The notes beneath the pieces are model-generated. The model made no database searches, was not told where the DNA came from, and saw only the letters and a program-made list of their open reading frames with translations. Position numbers and translations under genes: made by a program. Source: a virus. From it: DNA of 5,192 nt. Positions 1-5,192 of this stretch are shown in pieces. Numbering within the stretch: the stretch's first letter is position 1; each line of letters starts with the position of its first letter. The stretch lies in UHGV virus genome UHGV-0385696. One strand, written 5' to 3'.

Positions 1-890
1 TGCTGATTATGAAAATCTGCTATCGTCTTAAGCTGATAACCAGCAGGACGAGGTAAACCAGCCTTATCAAAAGCAGCACCTAACTCACCTTCTCCAATAT
101 ACTGAGGTAAAGAAAGGAAATGATTAAGCGATTCATTACCATACGAAAAAGCCAAAGACAAAGCCTCATATTTAGCCTTATCTTGAAGATACGGCTGAAT
201 AGATTCAGACAACTGAGCAGACAATTCATTAACACGAATCTGAGACGAATGAAGAGCAATAGTCGAATTAGCTAAACTCCGATCAATCGAAATACGAGCA
301 TTATCTACTGCAACCTGATGAGCAAACGACAAATTAAACTGACGAGCATTCTCTTTACGATTAGCATCTGAAATATCTTTCTCAGTCTTATTACGTTCAG
401 TAGCAATATTCTCATTGGACTGAGTCTGAACATCGACATTACGCTCATTAGACTTAGTCTGCATACCTGTAACCTCTTTCTGAGTAGTATTATGAGCTTC
501 AGCAACCTTTTCACTAGACTGAGTCTGCATCTCTGTAACCTCTTTCTGAGCTTGTATCTTATCCTTTTCGAGCATAGCGCCGACAATCGTCTGTACCATC
601 TGTAACACGCCCTGAGTATCAATAGGCGCAGAGTTAGGCGGTTGCGGAGCATTGCCGACTGCAGACTCCATAACGGCACCGCCATGAGCATATACAAGAT
701 TAGGATTCAATCCAGCCGCACGCAAGCGTGCCATCTGAGCAGTAGGGGCATTATAAGCGTTCATTTTATCCTGCATATAATTCATCCTATCCCATTGCTC
801 ATCAGACCTAGCCTGCGCATACTGATTATTAATGAAACCTCCAAGCAAAGAGGCACCAGCTCCAATTATTGCGGGTATAGCGGAAATCAT
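1..890 (-). CDS. VP2: Minor capsid / DNA pilot protein VP2, N-terminal 296 codons. The ATG is at 890-888 and the ORF runs off the left edge of the window. It continues in frame at 5192 if the molecule is circular.
   Basis: Hand translation of the reverse complement gives 296 codons with no stop: MISAIPAIIGAGASLLGGFINNQYAQARSDEQWDRMNYMQDKMNAYNAPTAQMARLRAAGLNPNLVYAHGG... The Gly/Ala-rich N-terminus and the 'AGLNPNLVY' motif are typical of Microviridae VP2 pilot proteins. The gene lies 7 nt downstream of the VP1 stop on the same strand. The supplied ORF track missed it only because no stop occurs inside the window. Confidence 0.8.
   Translation of the reverse strand, partial: MISAIPAIIGAGASLLGGFINNQYAQARSDEQWDRMNYMQDKMNAYNAPTAQMARLRAAGLNPNLVYAHGGAVMESAVGNAPQPPNSAPIDTQGVLQMVQTIVGAMLEKDKIQAQKEVTEMQTQSSEKVAEAHNTTQKEVTGMQTKSNERNVDVQTQSNENIATERNKTEKDISDANRKENARQFNLSFAHQVAVDNARISIDRSLANSTIALHSSQIRVNELSAQLSESIQPYLQDKAKYEALSLAFSYGNESLNHFLSLPQYIGEGELGAAFDKAGLPRPAGYQLKTIADFHNQ
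418..550 (-). repeat. Imperfect direct tandem repeat inside the VP2 coding sequence. Copies are at about 451-484 and 517-550 (31/34 identical, 66 nt apart), with a partial third copy at 418-428.
   Basis: Plus strand 451-484 is gacttagtctgcatacctgtaacctctttctgag and 517-550 is gactgagtctgcatctctgtaacctctttctgag. Both copies are in frame and encode repeated QKEVT(E/G)MQT(Q/K)S(S/N)E(K/R) units in VP2. Confidence 0.75.
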
Positions 891-897
891 AATATCA

Positions 898-2817
898 TCA
901 TCTTAAAACATTACCATCATAACGAGCTAGCGGACGCAATACATCCACATTATTATAAGTAACAGACAATACGTGATTATCTACAGGCTTATCTACAACA
1001 CGCGACAGGGTACGAATATATGTCCAACCTGGAAAACCAAAGGTATATGGAACAGTAACAGTTGAAGAATAAACACCGTAATCAATAAAGAAAGGAAAAA
1101 CCAAATCACCACGAGTAAGATATGAAATCTCAGATAAGCGATAATCTCCTTCTAAAGCCTGACTTTTAGCAACACGACGGAAAACAAGATCTGACGAAGA
1201 ATCTATAAGAAAAGAACCAGCAGTAGACGCATCCTTAACCCTAGAAAGACACGAAAACATAAATCTAAAATCTCCCTGAGAAATATTTGACTGATTAACA
1301 GATATAGACGGCCTAGCTAAAAGATCATCAGATATCCTCTCGACAACTGCTATCGACAAATCATAAGTAAGCGGAGCTTTATCAATATCATATCCTAACT
1401 TAATATGAGCTTTATATAACGCACCGTTAGGTGAAAAACCATCTGGAGCCCAAACATAACCAGCAACAGTCTGCATAGATTCCAAAGTAGTACCTTGAGT
1501 AGTTTCAATATTTGTAGCAGTACCACTAAACCTATAAAGATACAAAGGTTCATCACCGGTAAATGAAAATATACGATTATCGGGATGGCAAGTAACAAAA
1601 TCTACCGATAACTTCTCTTTGGAAATATCGCGCGACAGATGCCAATAATCAAGCGAACGCCTAAAATCTCCAGATACTACATCATTACCATAACGATAAT
1701 CATCATACCTAGGAACATATCCGAAAGCTTCATCTTTAGATCGAGCAACATCAAGTTCACGTCCCTCTATCTCTTGATAACCAAGCGCGGAGAAATGAGG
1801 ATTAAAGAAATCAAAATAAGTCCTACGAGTGAACATCTTAGGACAACCACCGATATTTGACGGACGAGGACGAACAAAATGCAAACCAATAATCAAGCCA
1901 TGTTCATACACATCATACTGAATCTGACCGGTACGATTAACAGACACAGACTTACCATAACTTTCACCAACAGAGCCAAGTTCAGAAGGCGCTGTCTGGT
2001 CTACATCTGAAACATTAAGAACGTAACTATCACCACCTAGATACTTAGGGATCTGTACTCTAGCATCAAGCGGTTCAACTCCAAAGAACTCCTTAATATA
2101 ATTAGCATACTTACCACCAACACGCAAAAGACGCTCACGGAAAGACTGCAAACGCTCAGCTAAACGCATCTCAGGCACAGTAATAGTATTATTACCATCC
2201 ATATCCAACTGAACCATATTACCGTACTGCGTAGAGGTATGAGCGCTAGTAAAGTAATCAAGTCCCTCATTAACATACATCACATTACCAATGTATTTGC
2301 GCAGAGAAGCACTACTAAAATTTTCGGGGCGCAACTGATCAACATAACGTTCATCAAGATCCGACCTCATATAGTAGTGATTATAGATCAGATAATAAGC
2401 TAGTAGGGGAGTAGCATTAAGATCCTTAAGCGCATTAGCAGGATTAACATCATCATTAGATGTAGCAAGTCCAAAATACTCTAGCAAAGGCTTCTCTATA
2501 AAAAGATCCTTAAAGGTCTTGGAACTATACTGTAGATACTTATCCATACCTGGCACAGTCTGACCACTATCAGGATCAGTCAGTATCTGCTCATAGTTAG
2601 GTATCAACAGACGATAAGGCACATAATAGTACCTCTGGAAGTAATCAAGTCTATGCATCAACGGGGATAACATAGGCTGGAGACGTACAAGCGTACTAGA
2701 TTGTACGCGATACTTATCACCGGGAACTACTTCCTGGCAAAGAAATGGGATTAATTGACCCATCTCAAAGCTAGAACGGACTTCATGATCTAGCGAATAC
2801 TTAGTTAGATTTGGCAT
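898..2817 (-). CDS. VP1: Major capsid protein VP1 (phiX174 F-protein homologue), 639 aa.
   Basis: A long intact ORF. Its N-terminus ...FEMGQLIPFLCQEVVPGDKY... matches the conserved Microviridae VP1 N-terminal signature (F.MGQLIP..C.EV.PGD). Start is ATG at 2817-2815 and stop is TGA at 900-898. The gene is tightly packed between the 132-aa ORF (3-nt gap) and VP2 (7-nt gap). Confidence 0.95.
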   Translation of the reverse strand: MPNLTKYSLDHEVRSSFEMGQLIPFLCQEVVPGDKYRVQSSTLVRLQPMLSPLMHRLDYFQRYYYVPYRLLIPNYEQILTDPDSGQTVPGMDKYLQYSSKTFKDLFIEKPLLEYFGLATSNDDVNPANALKDLNATPLLAYYLIYNHYYMRSDLDERYVDQLRPENFSSASLRKYIGNVMYVNEGLDYFTSAHTSTQYGNMVQLDMDGNNTITVPEMRLAERLQSFRERLLRVGGKYANYIKEFFGVEPLDARVQIPKYLGGDSYVLNVSDVDQTAPSELGSVGESYGKSVSVNRTGQIQYDVYEHGLIIGLHFVRPRPSNIGGCPKMFTRRTYFDFFNPHFSALGYQEIEGRELDVARSKDEAFGYVPRYDDYRYGNDVVSGDFRRSLDYWHLSRDISKEKLSVDFVTCHPDNRIFSFTGDEPLYLYRFSGTATNIETTQGTTLESMQTVAGYVWAPDGFSPNGALYKAHIKLGYDIDKAPLTYDLSIAVVERISDDLLARPSISVNQSNISQGDFRFMFSCLSRVKDASTAGSFLIDSSSDLVFRRVAKSQALEGDYRLSEISYLTRGDLVFPFFIDYGVYSSTVTVPYTFGFPGWTYIRTLSRVVDKPVDNHVLSVTYNNVDVLRPLARYDGNVLR

Positions 2818-2820
2818 AGT

Positions 2821-3219
2821 TTATAGATCTTCTATCAGTGAATAATTCAGCAGGCGGGCAAACTCCCAAATGGAGGGCGTCCAACCTTGTTCAACGTGCC
2901 ACATTGAGTAAAGAAGGACAACATACTCAAGGGTAGTATCTATATCCTCATCTTCATTGATCAATTGACCAACAAAGGAGATATAAGCAGCGGTATCGTT
3001 ACCATCTTCTTTCGGTGCCCAATATCGTATTATATCACGAGGTGTTTTTGCATCGTGAAGATTACGATAATTATAGACAAGGAGGAAAGCAGCACGGACA
3101 CCGTACTTCATATCCGAGAACTGACAGAAACCATTCTTAGGCTCTGTTTGACCCTTCCAATTATTAGCAGGGTTATACCGTATATTAAACGGGTTATTTC
3201 TATACTTACAAGTGTTCAT
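2821..3219 (-). CDS. Hypothetical 132-aa protein in the position that gokushovirus VP5 occupies (between Rep and VP1). Function unknown.
   Basis: ATG at 3219-3217 and stop TAA at 2823-2821, 3 nt before the VP1 ATG. It sits 6 nt after the stop of the upstream small ORF. There are no internal stops, and it reads on the same strand and in the same tight packing as the known genes. The sequence MNTCKYRNNPFNIRYNPANNWKGQ...GFCQF...YGVRAAFLLVY has a conserved-looking N-terminal motif and an acidic C-terminal half. I cannot assign it to a family from memory. Confidence 0.6.
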   Translation of the reverse strand: MNTCKYRNNPFNIRYNPANNWKGQTEPKNGFCQFSDMKYGVRAAFLLVYNYRNLHDAKTPRDIIRYWAPKEDGNDTAAYISFVGQLINEDEDIDTTLEYVVLLYSMWHVEQGWTPSIWEFARLLNYSLIEDL

Positions 3220-3225
3220 AGCATA

Positions 3226-3354
3226 TCAGATTAAGAATACAGACCAACCAAAGGAGACCAAAAGCACTCCAATAGCTACAAGTAGCAAAATGATAGGGAT
3301 TCGAAACTTACGCAACTTTGCGAAGAATCCGATTTTAGGTTTGAGAATACTCAT
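3226..3354 (-). CDS. Small cationic single-pass membrane protein of 42 aa, MSILKPKIGFFAKLRKFRIPIILLLVAIGVLLVSFGWSVFLI. It may instead initiate at the upstream ATG at 3432, giving 68 aa and overlapping the Rep 3' end by 77 nt.
   Basis: The ATG at 3354-3352 lies 1 nt after the Rep TAA (sense strand reads TAA-T-ATG). The stop TGA at 3228-3226 lies 6 nt before the next gene's ATG. The basic N-terminal region (K5, K7, K13, R15, K16, R18) is followed by a roughly 24-residue hydrophobic C-terminal helix. The ORF fills the Rep-VP5 gap exactly, on the sense strand. Confidence 0.45.
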   Translation of the reverse strand: MSILKPKIGFFAKLRKFRIPIILLLVAIGVLLVSFGWSVFLI

Positions 3355-3355
3355 A

Positions 3356-4294
3356 TTACAAAGGGGATTTTTTGTTATTAGCGCGGATAGATTTAGACAT
3401 ACGGTCTTGTATGTAGCGCGCATTTTCCACATACTGTTTTACTGTTAGATTAGCGTCAGACGCGATTTCAGATATACGGGCTAATTTAGCCTCAGGCGAT
3501 ATATCGGGGGCAATAGCTTCGCGCCATATCTCTGGCACAAGCTTCTTTAGATAGATACGCGGTAGCGTATAGGAGTGACCTCCGATAGCATAAGTAGGAT
3601 AGGACTCACCTGGTTCGAGGTGATCCCAAAACCAACGGATAAAGGCAGGCTCACGCAGGAGCTGACAGCCTAAACCTTGGCTAGCAACAATGAAACTAAA
3701 CTTTTTCAGATAATACTCAACTATATAACGATGCTGAAGATCTCGATTAGACCATATATGATTAAAGATATAATCTACTGATCGACCGGAAACCTTGACA
3801 TTACGAAACTGCTTAGTAACATACTTAGATAGATAATGTATCCGAGCAGGAGTGACAAAATCACACTGTATATTACCATAAGTCCAAGTATCAGATATTA
3901 GACGGCGCATATCCGTGAGAGTCATAGACTTATCAAGATATAATATCACATGGTAGTGAGGGCGCAAAGACTCATCGCCATACTCGTGACAGAGGAAATA
4001 CCGAACTTTGGCAGGCTGTAACGCCTTACGAAGTCGCTTAAGCCAGCGCTGATAATGATATTTCAAGGGCATTCGCAAGTTTGAGGAACCGTGAAACGGA
4101 AGACCTAACAAGGCTGTATCATTGTACGTAAGAGTACAGAAAAACGCAGATTCTGAATACTGCAATTCAACTGTATTACGGAACATCCAAGACGATCGCT
4201 TATTAGATTGACAAGCGTAACAAGTACCACAGGGCACTTTGATAAATTTTCCCGTCTTTGGATTCAAGACTTGTATTTGATTAACACATAGCAT
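3356..4294 (-). CDS. VP4: Replication initiation protein VP4/Rep, a rolling-circle HUH endonuclease of the phiX174 gpA-like superfamily, 312 aa.
   Basis: The N-terminal Cys cluster (...VPCGTCYACQ) and motif I FFCTLTYND. Motif II (HUH) is LRPHYHVILY. Motif III, the tandem catalytic Tyr, is YLSKYVTK (compare phiX174 A protein YVAKYVNK). Start is ATG at 4294-4292 and stop is TAA at 3358-3356. Confidence 0.95.
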   Translation of the reverse strand: MLCVNQIQVLNPKTGKFIKVPCGTCYACQSNKRSSWMFRNTVELQYSESAFFCTLTYNDTALLGLPFHGSSNLRMPLKYHYQRWLKRLRKALQPAKVRYFLCHEYGDESLRPHYHVILYLDKSMTLTDMRRLISDTWTYGNIQCDFVTPARIHYLSKYVTKQFRNVKVSGRSVDYIFNHIWSNRDLQHRYIVEYYLKKFSFIVASQGLGCQLLREPAFIRWFWDHLEPGESYPTYAIGGHSYTLPRIYLKKLVPEIWREAIAPDISPEAKLARISEIASDANLTVKQYVENARYIQDRMSKSIRANNKKSPL

Positions 4295-4434
4295 TTACTA
4301 GAATGAGTTAAATGTTTAGTTAGAAAACACGCTTTTATAATTTTCAAAGTAGTATCTTCCAACTCTCTAGGACAAATGTACTACAAATTATTTAGACAGA
4401 CAACACACGATACAAATACATCGTGGTGTCACTT

Positions 4435-4466
4435 GGCGATTACATGTCAAGTAATAGGTAATCGCC
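4435..4466. other. Perfect 9-bp inverted repeat, ggcgattac ... gtaatcgcc, separated by a 14-nt spacer. On the sense strand the spacer contains TTGACA.
   Basis: Positions 4435-4443 are the exact reverse complement of 4458-4466. The spacer is atgtcaagtaatag, and its reverse complement includes TTGACA. The element lies about 140 nt upstream of the Rep ATG on the sense strand. Confidence 0.6.
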
Positions 4467-4500
4467 TTTCTCTCTCGTGATAATTAACGGGCGGGGGGGC

Positions 4501-4520
4501 AGTCCGAAGGACTTATTCGG
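4501..4520. other. Small alternative hairpins in the GC island: agtcc-gaa-ggact (4501-4513) and ccgaa-ggactta-ttcgg (4504-4520).
   Basis: Short 5-bp inverted repeats read directly from the sequence. The two foldings are mutually exclusive. They lie immediately next to the G7 tract at 4493-4499. Confidence 0.4.
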
Positions 4521-4526
4521 CTATTG

Positions 4527-4565
4527 CCATTGCCCCCACCTCAAAAGAGGTGAGGGGGGCAATGG
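4527..4565. other. Extended imperfect stem-loop. The stems are ccattg/caatgg (6 bp), cccc/gggg (4 bp) and cacctc/gaggtg (6 bp), with an AAAA loop (TTTT on the sense strand). A GG internal bulge and an A bulge interrupt the stem.
   Basis: Checked base by base on the given strand. Positions 4537-4542 pair with 4547-4552, 4533-4536 with 4554-4557, and 4527-4532 with 4560-4565. The GC content is far above the genome background. Confidence 0.7.
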
Positions 4566-4595
4566 ACAAGCCATCAGCCCCCGCACCCATTAATT

Positions 4596-4898
4596 TCAAT
4601 CGGCTACGGGAGCCGTACCGGTCTCAACTGGCGCAGGAGCATCAACTTGCACCGGCTGAACCTTAGACAATAGATTATCTACATCAGATACCGTCATATG
4701 CCTAAAATCATACTTAGTAATATCTGGAGTGTCTAGAGTGTCCGAAGTGTCCTCAGACAATGATAATCCAACATTAAGCGCTTGACCGTCCATTAACTGC
4801 TTAACAAGTATAGACAGGTCTACAGTCTGATTCGGTAAAGTGTCAGACACTACACTCTGTGGCACACGAGCCACATACTTATAACTTCTCTTTTCCAT
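4596..4898 (-). CDS. Acidic 100-aa protein with a Pro/Ala-rich C-terminus. It is a candidate internal scaffolding protein (VP3-like) on the grounds of synteny and charge.
   Basis: ATG at 4898-4896 and stop TGA at 4598-4596. The sequence MEKRSYKYVARVPQ...SEDTSDTLDTPDITKYDF...VQVDAPAPVETGTAPVAD has acidic residues about twice as frequent as basic ones. The gene sits between VP2 and Rep, where gokushoviruses carry VP3. I do not recognise any sequence similarity from memory. Confidence 0.5.
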   Translation of the reverse strand: MEKRSYKYVARVPQSVVSDTLPNQTVDLSILVKQLMDGQALNVGLSLSEDTSDTLDTPDITKYDFRHMTVSDVDNLLSKVQPVQVDAPAPVETGTAPVAD

Positions 4899-5016
4899 GA
4901 TTATTAAAATTACGAATCTTGCGAATTATACTAAGAGTCAATGTCACAATAACCCAAACAGCACACGCAAAAAAAGCAACCATAACAACATAGGTTAATA
5001 AATCTGCGAAATTCAT
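4879..5016 (-). CDS. Small single-pass membrane protein of 45 aa, MNFADLLTYVVMVAFFACAVWVIVTLTLSIIRKIRNFNNHGKEKL. The ORF track's 66-aa version begins at a GTG at 5079 inside the VP2 3' end.
   Basis: The ATG at 5016-5014 lies 37 nt downstream of the VP2 stop. The stop TAA at 4881-4879 falls after a 20-nt overlap with the following 100-aa ORF (ATGGAAAAGAGAAGTTATAA). The protein has a short N-terminus, a hydrophobic helix of about 25 residues and a basic C-terminal tail (RKIRNFNNHGKEKL). Confidence 0.4.
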   Translation of the reverse strand: MNFADLLTYVVMVAFFACAVWVIVTLTLSIIRKIRNFNNHGKEKL

Positions 5017-5053
5017 AGCTATATAATTAGTTACGCGACAAAGATAAAACAAA

Positions 5054-5192
5054 TCATTTAATAGTAGCAGCTGCAACACCTAACTTAATAGGAGTAGAAG
5101 ACGCATTCCAAAAGGCATTCCAACCAGCATACCAAGCAGCAGCGTCGGCACGCTCAAAATCAGCTTCACCCGTTTTCTTCCACAACTCAAAC
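5054..5192 (-). CDS. VP2: 3' end of an ORF entering from beyond the right edge of the window, with stop TGA at 5056-5054. If the molecule is circular it joins in frame to the VP2 ORF at positions 890-1, giving a VP2 of about 341 aa.
   Basis: The reverse complement of 5057-5191 translates as FELWKKTGEADFERADAAAWYAGWNAFWNASSTPIKLGVAAATIK*. The leftover 'ca' from positions 2-1 plus the complement of 5192 ('g') forms CAG, which is exactly in this open frame. The other two frames hit stops immediately. Confidence 0.6.
   Translation of the reverse strand, partial: FELWKKTGEADFERADAAAWYAGWNAFWNASSTPIKLGVAAATIK

Follow-up and report, generated by a model that had tools for sequence, protein, structure and literature searches.

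A 5192-nt circular microvirus genome opened within VP2, with close relatives integrated at a conserved 28-bp site in Porphyromonas-like bacteria

The enterogokushovirus EC6098 has no integrase; it carries a phage dif-like motif beside VP4, and its prophages have on one side a host dif that is conserved and on the other a phage dif that varies more (Kirchberger and Ochman 2020, PMC7062461). In EC6098-type prophages the host motif is conserved on one side, the phage motif varies in its XerD arm and the site is found at the VP4 N-terminus (PMC7062461). The BMVs, or "Alpavirinae" (Krupovic and Forterre 2011, PMC3091885), are microviruses integrated as proviruses in Bacteroidales genomes, and the pattern of host and phage motifs at the att sites of the window's relatives matches the descriptions of both groups (PMC7062461, PMC3091885). 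The stretch of DNA analysed here (the window, 5192 nt in full) resembles EC6098 in lacking an integrase and in having a phage dif-like motif adjoining VP4 (Rep), and EC6098 (capsid 8DES) is also the best structural match of its VP1 (Foldseek E 1e-25). They differ in several respects: within the aligned part VP1 is ~28% identical, the alignment of VP1 to 8DES (452/639 columns) does not include the window's beta insertion of ~190 aa, and EC6098 has a smaller genome (4.3-4.7 kb) and an enterobacterium, not a member of the Bacteroidota, as its host. Dependence on Xer has been shown for EC6098, whereas for the window we only infer it. With the BMVs the window and its integrated relatives share the absence of a recombinase, flanking dif-like direct repeats and the absence of a J/VP8-like protein; BMVs, however, are ~6.3 kb, infect Bacteroides and Prevotella and carry a VP3-like ORF after VP1, where the window has VP2.

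Classical Gokushovirinae (Chlamydia phage Chp2, Bdellovibrio phage phiMH2K and SpV4) lack the spike protein G and the external scaffold D, as does the window, and the Chp2 order ORF4-ORF5-VP1-VP2-VP3 matches the window's Rep, small ORF, VP1, VP2 and VP3-position ORF. In contrast, VP1 is ~26% (Chp2/phiMH2K) and Rep 27-36% identical, no homologues of the VP3, VP5 or J/ORF8 of this group were found in the window, and the window additionally has an endolysin and two membrane-protein ORFs. The term gokushovirus-like, used in an earlier reading of the sequence alone (the sequence-only reading), is thus apt only in a broad sense, given the EC6098 match on the one hand and these differences on the other.

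The GenBank relatives PV067918.1 (Microviridae sp. isolate DZY05_k141_10672), OP549879.1, OP549878.1, PV067921.1 and PV067916.1 come from human samples; they are circular, 5098-5184 nt long and collinear with the window, with the same gene order and 78-85% nucleotide identity over 56-89% of the genome. Their Rep, endolysin and 100-aa protein are 84-94% identical to those of the window, whereas VP1 is only 64-70% identical and VP2 only 42-76% identical to their annotated pilot proteins, because the hypervariable modules differ. Annotation in these records is limited to 3-7 genes, with no att site. On its nucleotide identity of ~83%, the window is a different species-level lineage and a new member of a known group.

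Circular closure and the exact length of 5192 nt were shown directly by independent public assemblies. Two contigs from two different runs (L004 and L005; ERR8081435, ERR8083400) were 100% identical to the circularised window over their full length. They measure 5222 nt with a 30-nt terminal overlap and 5220 nt with a 28-nt terminal overlap, respectively, leaving a unique length of 5192 nt in each. Both are linearised inside VP1, at window positions ~2587 and ~2630, and therefore both span the 5192->1 junction, which they cross with 0 mismatches and 0 gaps. When the window's ends were joined artificially (4793-5192 followed by 1-400) and aligned with PV067918.1, no gap appeared at the joint and identity was 84% over 789 columns. 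A terminal overlap and a long internal repeat were looked for in the window itself and neither was found; it is therefore a single monomer. These results bear out the sequence-only reading of a complete, circularly closed Microviridae genome cut within VP2. The terminal overlap that it proposed to look for in assembler contigs is present at k-mer size, and beyond this overlap the source-type contigs contain no extra flanking sequence.

The VP2 gene is read in one frame across the ends, as had been proposed: it leaves two nucleotides at position 1, and the codon bridging the ends consists of bases 2, 1 and 5192. The joined protein has 342 aa (296 codons, one junction codon and 45 more), one more than the 341 first counted. 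Of the three minus-strand frames running down from 5192, the VP2 frame stays open for 45 codons and the other two close after 1 and 36, so that describing it as the only open frame was a slight overstatement. By chance a frame would stay open for 45-46 codons with a probability of ~0.06, whether computed from base composition or from shuffles of the terminal 139 nt, and the ORF argument is therefore weak on its own. VP2 matched phrog_8689 "pilot protein for DNA ejection" (E 7e-18) and scored 22.3 bits against Pfam Microvir_H, below the cut-off of 22.7. Gene callers reported a 342-aa VP2 gene in L004 and L005, where the gene is contig-internal. Homologues align through the 5054-5192 segment, in agreement with the predicted continuation of homology across the junction: the VP2 of PV067918 is also 342 aa long, and its tail begins FELWKK as in the window and ends AAASIK (AAATIK in the window). 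The pattern HN...W...GW...WNA...P is kept in the C-termini of more distant VP2 types.

Table 1 Coordinates of features in the 5192-nt window
Feature	Position	Strand	Details
Whole window	1..5192		One complete circular Microviridae genome, opened by the assembler inside VP2
VP2, 5' part	1..890	-	ATG 890-888; codons 1-296 and first 2 nt of codon 297
VP1 (major capsid protein), 639 aa	898..2817	-	Pfam Phage_F E 6e-55; phrog_514 E 1e-98
VP1 hypervariable all-beta insertion, aa ~420-612 (~190 aa)	982..1560	-	Ahead of the last, invariant capsid strand
Enc34/PHA02564-type endolysin, 132 aa	2821..3219	-	phrog_873 "endolysin" E 6e-25
42-aa single-pass membrane protein ORF	3226..3354	-	Exactly fills the Rep-endolysin gap
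Rep (VP4), rolling-circle replication initiator, 312 aa	3356..4294	-	Pfam REP_ORF2-G2P E 2e-18; phrog_942 E 7e-50
dif-like attP	4293..4320	.	+ strand reads ATTTACTAGAA / TGAGTT / AAATGTTTAGT (11-6-11); overlaps Rep start codon by 2 nt
Candidate Bacteroidota-type -7 box (TAnnTTTG)	4373..4380	-	TACATTTG; 79 nt upstream of Rep ATG
Hairpin CACGA...TCGTG	4406-4425	-	Intergenic DNA fold; spans 4406..4466 with the other hairpin
Hairpin GGCGATTAC...GTAATCGCC	4435-4466	-	Invariant; DNA fold and alignment of intergenic region
G+C-rich Y-shaped (three-way junction) structure	4478..4598	-	Coding/viral strand; begins at the last gene's stop codon
100-aa acidic protein, VP3 position	4596..4898	-	84-97% identical in relatives
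45-aa single-pass membrane protein ORF	4879..5016	-	ATG 5016; overlaps start of 100-aa gene
VP2, 3' part	5054..5192	-	Last base of codon 297, 45 codons, TGA 5056-5054

The genome carries seven conserved intact ORFs, every one on the minus strand, in the order Rep, 42-aa membrane protein, endolysin, VP1, VP2, 45-aa membrane protein and 100-aa acidic protein, followed by a 301-nt structured intergenic region. By the rule of the family the minus strand of the window would be the packaged strand, and single-strandedness would likewise follow from family membership. The gene set listed earlier (Rep, a VP5-position ORF, VP1, VP2 and a VP3 candidate) is all present; the two conserved small membrane-protein ORFs had been overlooked. 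Rep, 84-93% identical in relatives, contains the motifs FFCTLTY (51-57), HYHVILY (113-119) and YLSKYVTK (154-161); two Tyr lie in the third of these. The AlphaFold model of VP1 had a pLDDT of 81.7, and its best Foldseek matches were EC6098 8DES and SpV4 9CGM, then the F proteins of phiX174, G4 and alpha3. In the hypervariable insertion the model shows ~11 beta strands, with pLDDT mostly 78-91. Across 55 clade representatives the capsid core had a median identity of 91%, compared with 22% in the hypervariable segment. The latter measures 175-228 aa, and at 40% identity at least 11 types of it can be told apart; a tblastn of VP1 against all other microviruses ends at about aa 420-430. The hypervariable beta domain, together with the variable part of VP2, would set host-strain specificity. 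The exact VP1 sequence was not found in the gene index, which records only one product per gene, so that a miss there does not prove absence.

Close relatives integrate site-specifically, leaving hybrid attL/attR sites and empty attB sites. In Porphyromonas-like genomes they were always found in the same place, a conserved 28-bp site flanked by a fimbrillin gene and pyrD, and their proviruses are bounded by the 28-bp motif, with the host version always on the Rep side and the phage version at the far site. One provirus of 5186 nt lies in a contig of Porphyromonas sp. UMGS166 with bacterial genes on either side, and contigs of six further samples (L011-L013, L017-L019) share this insertion locus; among them the host flank takes at least four different sequences. 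In another contig, L014, phage and host sequence meet at this same att motif, and the right flank of the contig resembles that of L017. Empty host sites contain one copy of the motif; the flanks of two of them (L027, L028) match those of the lysogens L018/L019 and L013. Such relatives are proviruses in Porphyromonas-like gut, oral and vaginal bacteria. One VP1 relative carries the NCBI name "Porphyromonas sp.", and CRISPR-based host predictions in a study containing a clade relative include Porphyromonas (PMC12450867). The window represents the free form, and extrapolation from relatives of 84-89% identity suggests that its virus infects Porphyromonas-like Bacteroidota.

We consider it very probable that the window is an entire microvirus genome, a 5192-nt circle opened arbitrarily within VP2, with the gene, host and lysogeny proposals made here. 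It could instead be a linear fragment, either a piece of a provirus contig or an incomplete genome with missing ends, in which the VP2 frame match is coincidental. Such a match does arise at the chance given above, and relatives do sit integrated in bacterial contigs; but two independent assemblies close at exactly 5192 nt with full identity through the junction, the junction is gap-free against an 84%-identical GenBank genome, the VP2 tail is homologous to those of relatives, and the window has no host flank, while its phage-type attP is intact. We count this reading as refuted and regard it as extremely improbable. Somewhat more weight, though still very little, falls to the reading that the assembler fused two or more related, co-occurring strains into a chimera, circular but non-existent as a genome. 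The clade is a mosaic in which the VP1 hypervariable segment and the central and C-terminal parts of VP2 are swapped among otherwise ~90% identical genomes, with module borders at window positions ~516, ~991, ~1561 and ~4898, so co-occurring strains could be merged by an assembler. Against this, two different runs yielded the same 5192-nt sequence, the seven ORFs are all intact, and the proviruses L018/L019 are collinear with the window at 89% through Rep, the endolysin and all of VP1, hypervariable type included.

No recombinase or integrase domain was found in any window ORF, and Xer-type integration is suggested for that reason: host Xer-type tyrosine recombinases would recombine the phage dif-like site with the host site and so allow the virus to lysogenise. 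Judged by eye, the arms of the att site resemble those of E. coli and B. subtilis dif, and its spacer TGAGTT differs from the textbook dif spacers. The att junctions are precise reciprocal hybrids of the two 28-bp sites, in an 11-6-11 arrangement with the exchange between the arms, and therefore bear the signature of tyrosine-recombinase site-specific recombination. This signature speaks against integration of the clade by the phage HUH Rep acting on an origin-like host sequence beside rep, even though the attachment site abuts the Rep start codon and the two catalytic tyrosines of Rep could carry out cleavage and joining. The same arrangement in the enterogokushovirus EC6098 experimentally needs XerC and the dif motif (PMC7062461), and we judge integration by Rep to be very improbable. 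The Xer route for the window virus would follow the mechanism established experimentally for EC6098 and proposed for the Bacteroidetes BMVs.

The VP5-position ORF did not prove to be a VP5: it is not homologous to VP5, and its 132-aa product is an endolysin of the Enc34 type (PHA02564; Cernooka et al. 2022, PMC8943055; PDB 7Q47). It matched 7q47 with E 2e-6 as a single sequence and 2.5e-8 as a profile, and a PDB sequence match to 9vvp Gp29 was also obtained. Its model (pLDDT 85.6) shares the all-helical fold of 7q47 over the whole length (Foldseek E 1e-6, TM 0.70), and in D3112-like, N4-like and other phages its homologues bear the annotation endolysin or "structural protein P5". The NNP.NIR, RWAP and TxAY motifs are kept, including the Trp and Tyr implicated in catalysis (W67 and Y79, aligned with Enc34 Trp79 and Tyr95; PMC8943055), and motif resemblance alone suggests E110 (HVEQG) as the counterpart of the catalytic Glu131 (RHENG). 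Unlike the Enc34 enzyme, the window protein has only 132 aa and lacks a C-terminal transmembrane domain, and a 42-aa membrane protein has its own gene directly upstream.

This 42-aa protein has a basic N-terminus and one hydrophobic helix; every relative examined has a counterpart of exactly 42 aa and conserved sequence, which gene callers reported in L017 and L018. Family searches with it gave no match, and it may be a holin-like lysis partner. At the position of the 45-aa ORF all relatives have an ORF of 43-46 aa whose single hydrophobic helix varies in sequence and whose C-terminal ...F(R/N)N(H)GKEKL is conserved; gene callers reported it in L012-L014 and L017-L020. The GTG-started 66-aa ORF of the mechanical list probably does not give the true start. 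The 45-aa ORF matched holin_2 weakly (E 0.011, far below the cut-off). Host lysis would use the endolysin and, putatively, one or both small membrane proteins. The 100-aa protein belongs to a small family (42 clusters; 19 representatives among 1.84 billion proteins) and had no match in Pfam, PHROG or NCBIfam. As a VP3 candidate it has the expected position and is acidic, but no homology to gokushovirus VP3 was detectable (hhalign against Chp2 and phiMH2K VP3, E 0.46-0.48), so the VP3 label rests on position only.

None of the seven start codons (0/7) is preceded by a Shine-Dalgarno sequence, an absence usual in Bacteroidota and in keeping with the proposed host. The Bacteroidota -7 promoter consensus is TAnnTTTG, and TACATTTG upstream of Rep is a candidate -7 box within a block, AAATAATTTGTAGTACATTTGT, that is invariant in six genomes; genome-wide the pattern is not enriched (7 found, 4.25 expected). 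A scan gave a terminator-like match in the region of the two intergenic hairpins. The DNA fold of 4295-4595 had an energy of -58.4 kcal/mol (z = -10). G-U/G-T pairs in the Y structure indicate the coding strand. Across 11 distinct sequences 94.6% of its cells were paired, and 16/44 pairs showed compensatory double changes, compared with 6.6 +/- 1.8 in shuffles (0/500 reach 16) and at most 7 when the partners were slid.

Every long ORF of the window lies on the minus strand. When the window is read as linear, the VP2 (DNA pilot protein) ORF beginning at ATG 890 runs for 296 codons and two bases before reaching position 1. On the circle, bases 2, 1 and 5192 form a codon, and the frame then continues for 45 codons to TGA 5056-5054, as the sequence-only reading had stated; the joined protein has 342 aa in total, one more than the 341 aa claimed there. 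The same reading held that only this frame remains open. The matching frame is indeed open to its TGA, but one of the remaining two frames also runs 36 codons downward from 5192, the other stopping after 1. An open run this long is expected by chance with a probability of ~0.06, as estimated from base composition or from shuffles of the last 139 nt, so the frame match is real but, taken alone, weak evidence for circularity.

The closure was decided by independent assemblies. A look-up of the exact Rep protein gave two public contigs from separate sequencing runs, and an exact-sequence look-up with VP1 returned no contig. The contig from run ERR8081435 (L004) is 5222 nt long, has a 30-nt direct end repeat and is opened in VP1 at window position ~2587; that from run ERR8083400 (L005) is 5220 nt long, has a 28-nt direct end repeat and is opened in VP1 at ~2630. 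After subtraction of the end repeats, both have a unique length of exactly 5192 nt, and both align to the doubled window at 100% identity over their full length. Because they are opened inside VP1, the 5192->1 joint of the window is internal to both, where it is crossed with 0 mismatches and 0 gaps, and gene callers found the 342-aa gene at this position. A literature search for ERR8081435 and ERR8083400 gave no result. Among GenBank phage records, megablast identified five Microviridae genomes that are circular, human-associated and 5098-5184 nt long, with 78-85% identity (PV067918.1, OP549879.1, PV067921.1, OP549878.1 and PV067916.1), all rotated to the VP1 start. An artificial junction fragment (4793-5192 joined to 1-400) aligned with PV067918.1 as a single block of 789 columns at 84% identity, and the joint was free of gaps.

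The window could in principle be a linear fragment, a circle lacking a segment at the junction, or a dimer. The window has no terminal overlap; the linear fragment is nevertheless ruled out by the closure of the two contigs together with the gap-free junction alignment to PV067918.1, and a missing segment by the same alignment and by the contigs reading straight through the joint. A dimer is ruled out by the window's having no long internal repeat. Flanking sequence of other origin, which would have contradicted closure, is absent from both contigs, whose only additions are the terminal overlaps. With identical sequence, overlapping ends and a unique length of 5192 nt, they establish the window as a complete, circularly closed genome.

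The opening of the circle inside VP2, also proposed from the sequence, is borne out by the joined ORF and by homology across the joint. The pilot protein of PV067918 likewise has 342 aa; its tail begins with FELWKK as in the window and ends almost identically (AAASIK versus AAATIK). For more distant VP2 types the alignment still extends through the tail, so that the 5054-5192 segment is shared by homologues. The joined VP2 matched five pilot-protein PHROGs at E < 1e-4 and a sixth more weakly, the best being phrog_8689 (E 7e-18); besides phrog_8689, six PHROG families were matched, five of them annotated as pilot proteins. The score against Pfam Microvir_H was 22.3 bits, slightly below the cut-off of 22.7. 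The protein is a Microviridae DNA pilot protein of the H/VP2 type.

Features of the circular genome and of the host attachment site
Feature	Position (nt)	Strand	Description
Rep	3356-4294	minus	PF23343, E 2e-18; phrog_942, E 7e-50
42-aa ORF	3226-3354	minus	occupies exactly the space from Rep to the endolysin gene; basic N-terminus and one hydrophobic helix
VP1 major capsid protein	898-2817	minus	Pfam Phage_F PF02305, E 6e-55; phrog_514, E 1e-98
VP1 hypervariable insertion	982-1560 (aa ~420-612)	minus	~190 aa, before the last jelly-roll strand
45-aa single-helix ORF	4879-5016	minus	between VP2 and the 100-aa gene, overlapping the latter
100-aa acidic ORF	4596-4898	minus	VP3 position
Y-shaped three-way junction	4478-4598	minus	G+C-rich; first ~120 nt of the intergenic region, from the stop codon of the last gene
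Phage site attP	4293-4320	read on plus	ATTTACTAGAA-TGAGTT-AAATGTTTAGT
Host site attB (empty-site contig L027)			AAAAACTAGAA-TGAGTT-TTATGTTTAGT
28-bp dif-like site			AAAAACTAGAATGAGTTTTATGTTTAGT

The coding density is 93%, and the seven ORFs on a single strand are consistent with the Microviridae rule that the packaged ssDNA has mRNA sense. The genome size of 5192 nt lies within the range of the small circular genomes of this family (order Petitvirales, ~4-6.5 kb). Rep contains three rolling-circle motifs, including HYHVILY and YLSKYVTK with Y154 and Y158, and is a superfamily-I HUH protein with two catalytic tyrosines. The predicted VP1 model (pLDDT 81.7) has the single jelly-roll of F/VP1-type capsid proteins and matches 8DES, 9CGM, 1GFF and 2BPA, the gokushovirus EC6098 and SpV4 capsids being closest and the phiX174-type F proteins following.

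An ORF of 132 aa sits between Rep and VP1, the position of ORF5/VP5 in Chp2, and had been listed as the VP5-position ORF. The protein has no similarity to VP5. Its sequence matches include phrog_873 'endolysin' (E 6e-25), the endolysin catalytic domain of Hafnia phage Enc34 (PDB 7Q47) and many tailed-phage proteins labelled endolysin or 'structural protein P5'. Its AlphaFold model (pLDDT 85.6) was aligned by Foldseek to 7Q47 over the full length (TM 0.70, E 1e-6, 151 columns) and shows the all-helical lysozyme-like fold of the Enc34 type (PHA02564). The fold prediction identifies the protein as an Enc34-type endolysin with predicted muralytic activity, in place of a VP5. Trp79 and Tyr95 of the Enc34 endolysin have been linked to catalysis by Cernooka et al. 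(PMC8943055), and Trp67 and Tyr79 of the 132-aa protein align with them. The profile search of the PDB ended short of the catalytic glutamate; Glu110 (HVEQG), nearly invariant within the family, resembles catalytic Glu131 (RHENG) by motif only, in a segment left unaligned by HMMER. The 42-aa membrane-protein ORF, unchanged in length and conserved in sequence in all relatives examined, is a candidate holin because it lies immediately upstream of the endolysin gene. Several microvirus families are known to carry additional lysis genes in the VP4-VP1 interval (PMC9239249).

The 100-aa ORF had been proposed as a VP3 candidate, and its position and acidity agree with this, but homology to gokushovirus VP3 was undetected. 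The protein is strongly conserved within the clade; its remote relatives number a few dozen and are 89-123 aa long. Searches of Pfam, PHROG and NCBIfam and a blastp search against gokushovirus VP3 gave no match. A Pfam scan of 20 family members gave a spurious DEC-1_N match only, and a PHROG scan of 10 remote relatives was empty. Two hhalign runs against the VP3 of Chp2 and phiMH2K were insignificant (E 0.46-0.48), the same 12-13 residues being picked both times, and the sequence surrounding two remote relatives offered too little context to link them with VP3. The small ORFs all have at most 21% Lys+Arg, and none is an Arg/Lys-rich protein of the J/ORF8 type.

The genome is therefore gokushovirus-like in the broad sense only: the VP1 fold is closest to EC6098, but the scaffolding VP3 (Pfam Chlamy_scaf), the VP5 and the J/ORF8-type protein of Gokushovirinae in the strict sense were not found. 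VP1 identity is ~26% to Chp2 and phiMH2K and 32-36% to Parabacteroides phage YZ-2015b, and the probable place of the genome is Suborder III as defined by Kirchberger et al. 2022 (PMC9239249). The gene order described for BMV (Bacteroidales microvirus proviruses)/Alpavirinae (PMC3091885) is unlike that of the window, as compared by description only. The other marks of that group, Bacteroidales proviruses with dif-like repeats and without an integrase, are found in the provirus-bearing contigs of relatives (L008, L011-L014 and L017-L019) and not in the window itself.

These proviruses define an attachment site. The phage and host sites are both laid out as 11-6-11 and have the same spacer; exchange takes place between the arms. 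The Rep-side junction of every provirus carries the host version, ACTAAACATAAAACTCATTCT, and the far-side junction, ACTAAAC-(ATTT/GTAT/TTAT)-AACTCATTCT, carries the version that free genomes have, the window among them. In metagenome contigs, a pattern scan revealed empty sites at L027 2099-2121 and L028 3103-3125 (TAACTAAACATAAAACTCATTCT), each with one host-version copy. On the left and on the right, the flanking sequence equals that of lysogens L018/L019 and L013; occupied and empty alleles of one locus therefore coexist in public data. A 28-bp dif-like attP, hybrid attL/attR and an empty attB are the features of an integrative element exploiting Xer (IMEX), as is the lack of an own recombinase: no recombinase or integrase was found in the conserved ORFs with Pfam, PHROG and NCBIfam (VP2 with Pfam and PHROG only). 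The right arm of the host site agrees at 9/11 positions with what we take to be the XerD arm of E. coli dif, and at 8/11 with that of B. subtilis dif. GC skew of the provirus flanks, which are short, gave no clear replication-terminus signal at the host site. The att layout of the relatives matches that of the enterogokushovirus EC6098, whose integration was shown experimentally to need XerC and the phage dif motif; in that system a conserved host motif is paired with a phage motif whose XerD arm varies, and the site may extend as far as the N-terminus of VP4 (PMC7062461). It also matches that of the BMV proviruses, for which dif-type integration has been proposed (PMC3091885).

The host was approached through the same relatives. 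A VP1-alignment scan covering one genome per prokaryotic species returned one relative, in a 40-kb contig of 'Uncultured Porphyromonas sp. UMGS166'. This provirus of 5186 nt has the gene order of the window and is flanked by bacterial genes: pyrD/pyrK at one end, and at the other those for RecF, DapA, a FabK-like protein and a Fimbrillin_C protein. The contigs L011-L014 and L017-L019 were obtained by looking up relatives of the 100-aa protein. Those from six further samples (L011-L013 and L017-L019) carry an insertion at this very place, fimbrillin gene on one side and pyrD on the other, with at least four distinct host flank sequences; L014 provides an additional junction with a right flank similar to that of L017. 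For many VP1 relatives the contig is 17-149 kb long, and one relative is named Porphyromonas sp. by NCBI. The probable host is a Porphyromonas-like member of the Bacteroidota of the human gut, mouth, airways and vagina. We infer from these relatives that the window genome itself could integrate, in such a host and with dependence on Xer. The proviruses L018 (3880-9000) and L019 (3794-9100) carry the window's VP1 type at 89% nucleotide identity; their gene calls are shortened for Rep (276 and 303 aa) and VP2 (273 and 172 aa), which may reflect provirus decay or assembly error.

Complete microvirus genomes are known by thousands, and the window is an ordinary complete member of a known but little-described, human-associated, Porphyromonas-linked and integration-capable microvirus clade. 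The exact circle was already public, unannotated, in assemblies, and GenBank holds relatives at ~83% identity. The finding is thus routine and its value chiefly practical, namely a complete genome for reference use, a corrected annotation of its seven genes, a probable host and a defined attachment site. For Bacteroidota, the clade offers clean natural cases of dif-type lysogeny without an integrase, the site being available both occupied and empty, and it exemplifies a capsid protein with a near-invariant core and one hyperdiverse surface domain.

This domain was characterized in 55 clade representatives. VP1 residues 1-418 and the last 26 residues are nearly invariant, with a median core identity of 91%, and the insertion between them has a median identity of 22%, ranges from 175 to 228 aa in length and, at 40% identity, divides into at least 11 types. 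It forms a separate all-beta domain in the predicted model; a fold search with the whole VP1 model returned capsid cores only. The window's insertion type is shared by the representatives P0069-P0076 and the proviruses L018 and L019. A second variable block comprises the central and C-terminal part of VP2 together with the 45-aa ORF, and contains the window junction. The 45-aa ORF is present in every relative examined, its helix variable in sequence and its C-terminal ...NGKEKL conserved. Within VP2, aa ~114-175 (window 368-550, minus strand) contain imperfect direct repeats of 40-61 nt with spacings of 66 and 99 nt (families D1 and D2), which encode repeated QKEVTxMQTxS-like units; relatives vary here by insertion or deletion of whole units.

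The 301-nt intergenic region, folded as ssDNA, reaches -58.4 kcal/mol (z = -10 versus shuffles). In its Y-shaped element, 94.6% of cells pair across 11 distinct sequences, and compensatory double changes occur in 16 of 44 pairs, compared with 6.6 +/- 1.8 in shuffled alignments (0/500 shuffles reach 16) and at most 7 in slid controls. The G-U/G-T pairs point to folding on the coding/viral strand. The element is possibly a terminator, an mRNA 3' end, a complementary-strand origin or a packaging signal.

Further work may be worthwhile only on the hypervariable domain of the capsid protein and on the covarying Y-shaped structure. Tentatively, and with the odds somewhat against it, we suggest that an exchangeable cassette for host recognition is built into the otherwise frozen genome of the clade and, separately, that the Y-shaped element may be a new kind of ssDNA signal, for a complementary-strand origin or for packaging, and not a plain terminator. 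One part of such a cassette would be the ~190-aa all-beta VP1 domain, with its at least 11 unrelated types on ~91%-identical cores; the other would combine the variable part of VP2, its centre and C-terminus, with the 45-aa membrane protein. If so, temperate Porphyromonas microviruses would switch strain specificity via recombination of modules and not by point mutation.

With regard to expression, none of the seven start codons is preceded by a Shine-Dalgarno sequence within 25 nt upstream. TAnnTTTG is the -7 promoter motif of Bacteroidota. One copy, TACATTTG, lies at 4373-4380 (minus strand) within an invariant block 79 nt upstream of Rep, and a further one lies at 5039-5046 (minus strand), 23 nt upstream of the 45-aa ORF. 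The motif shows no enrichment genome-wide (7 versus 4.25 expected; 27/200 shuffles reach 7), and the box upstream of Rep is suggestive by its position in the invariant block alone. The lack of Shine-Dalgarno sequences and the TAnnTTTG boxes fit Bacteroidota expression signals. Sites found by a sigma-70 promoter and terminator scan were no commoner than in shuffles, and Rfam (E <= 1) and tRNA scans of the window were empty. A hairpin at 4435-4466 (minus strand; GGCGATTAC-CTATTACTTGACAT-GTAATCGCC) is almost invariant in six genomes and has a TTGACA hexamer in its loop. At 4406-4425 (columns ~175-195 of the intergenic alignment), the window and PV067918 have CACGATGTATTTGTATCGTG and four relatives have CACGATACAAATACAT; the inner ~12 nt are mutually reverse-complementary, which suggests inversion of a small hairpin loop between lineages.
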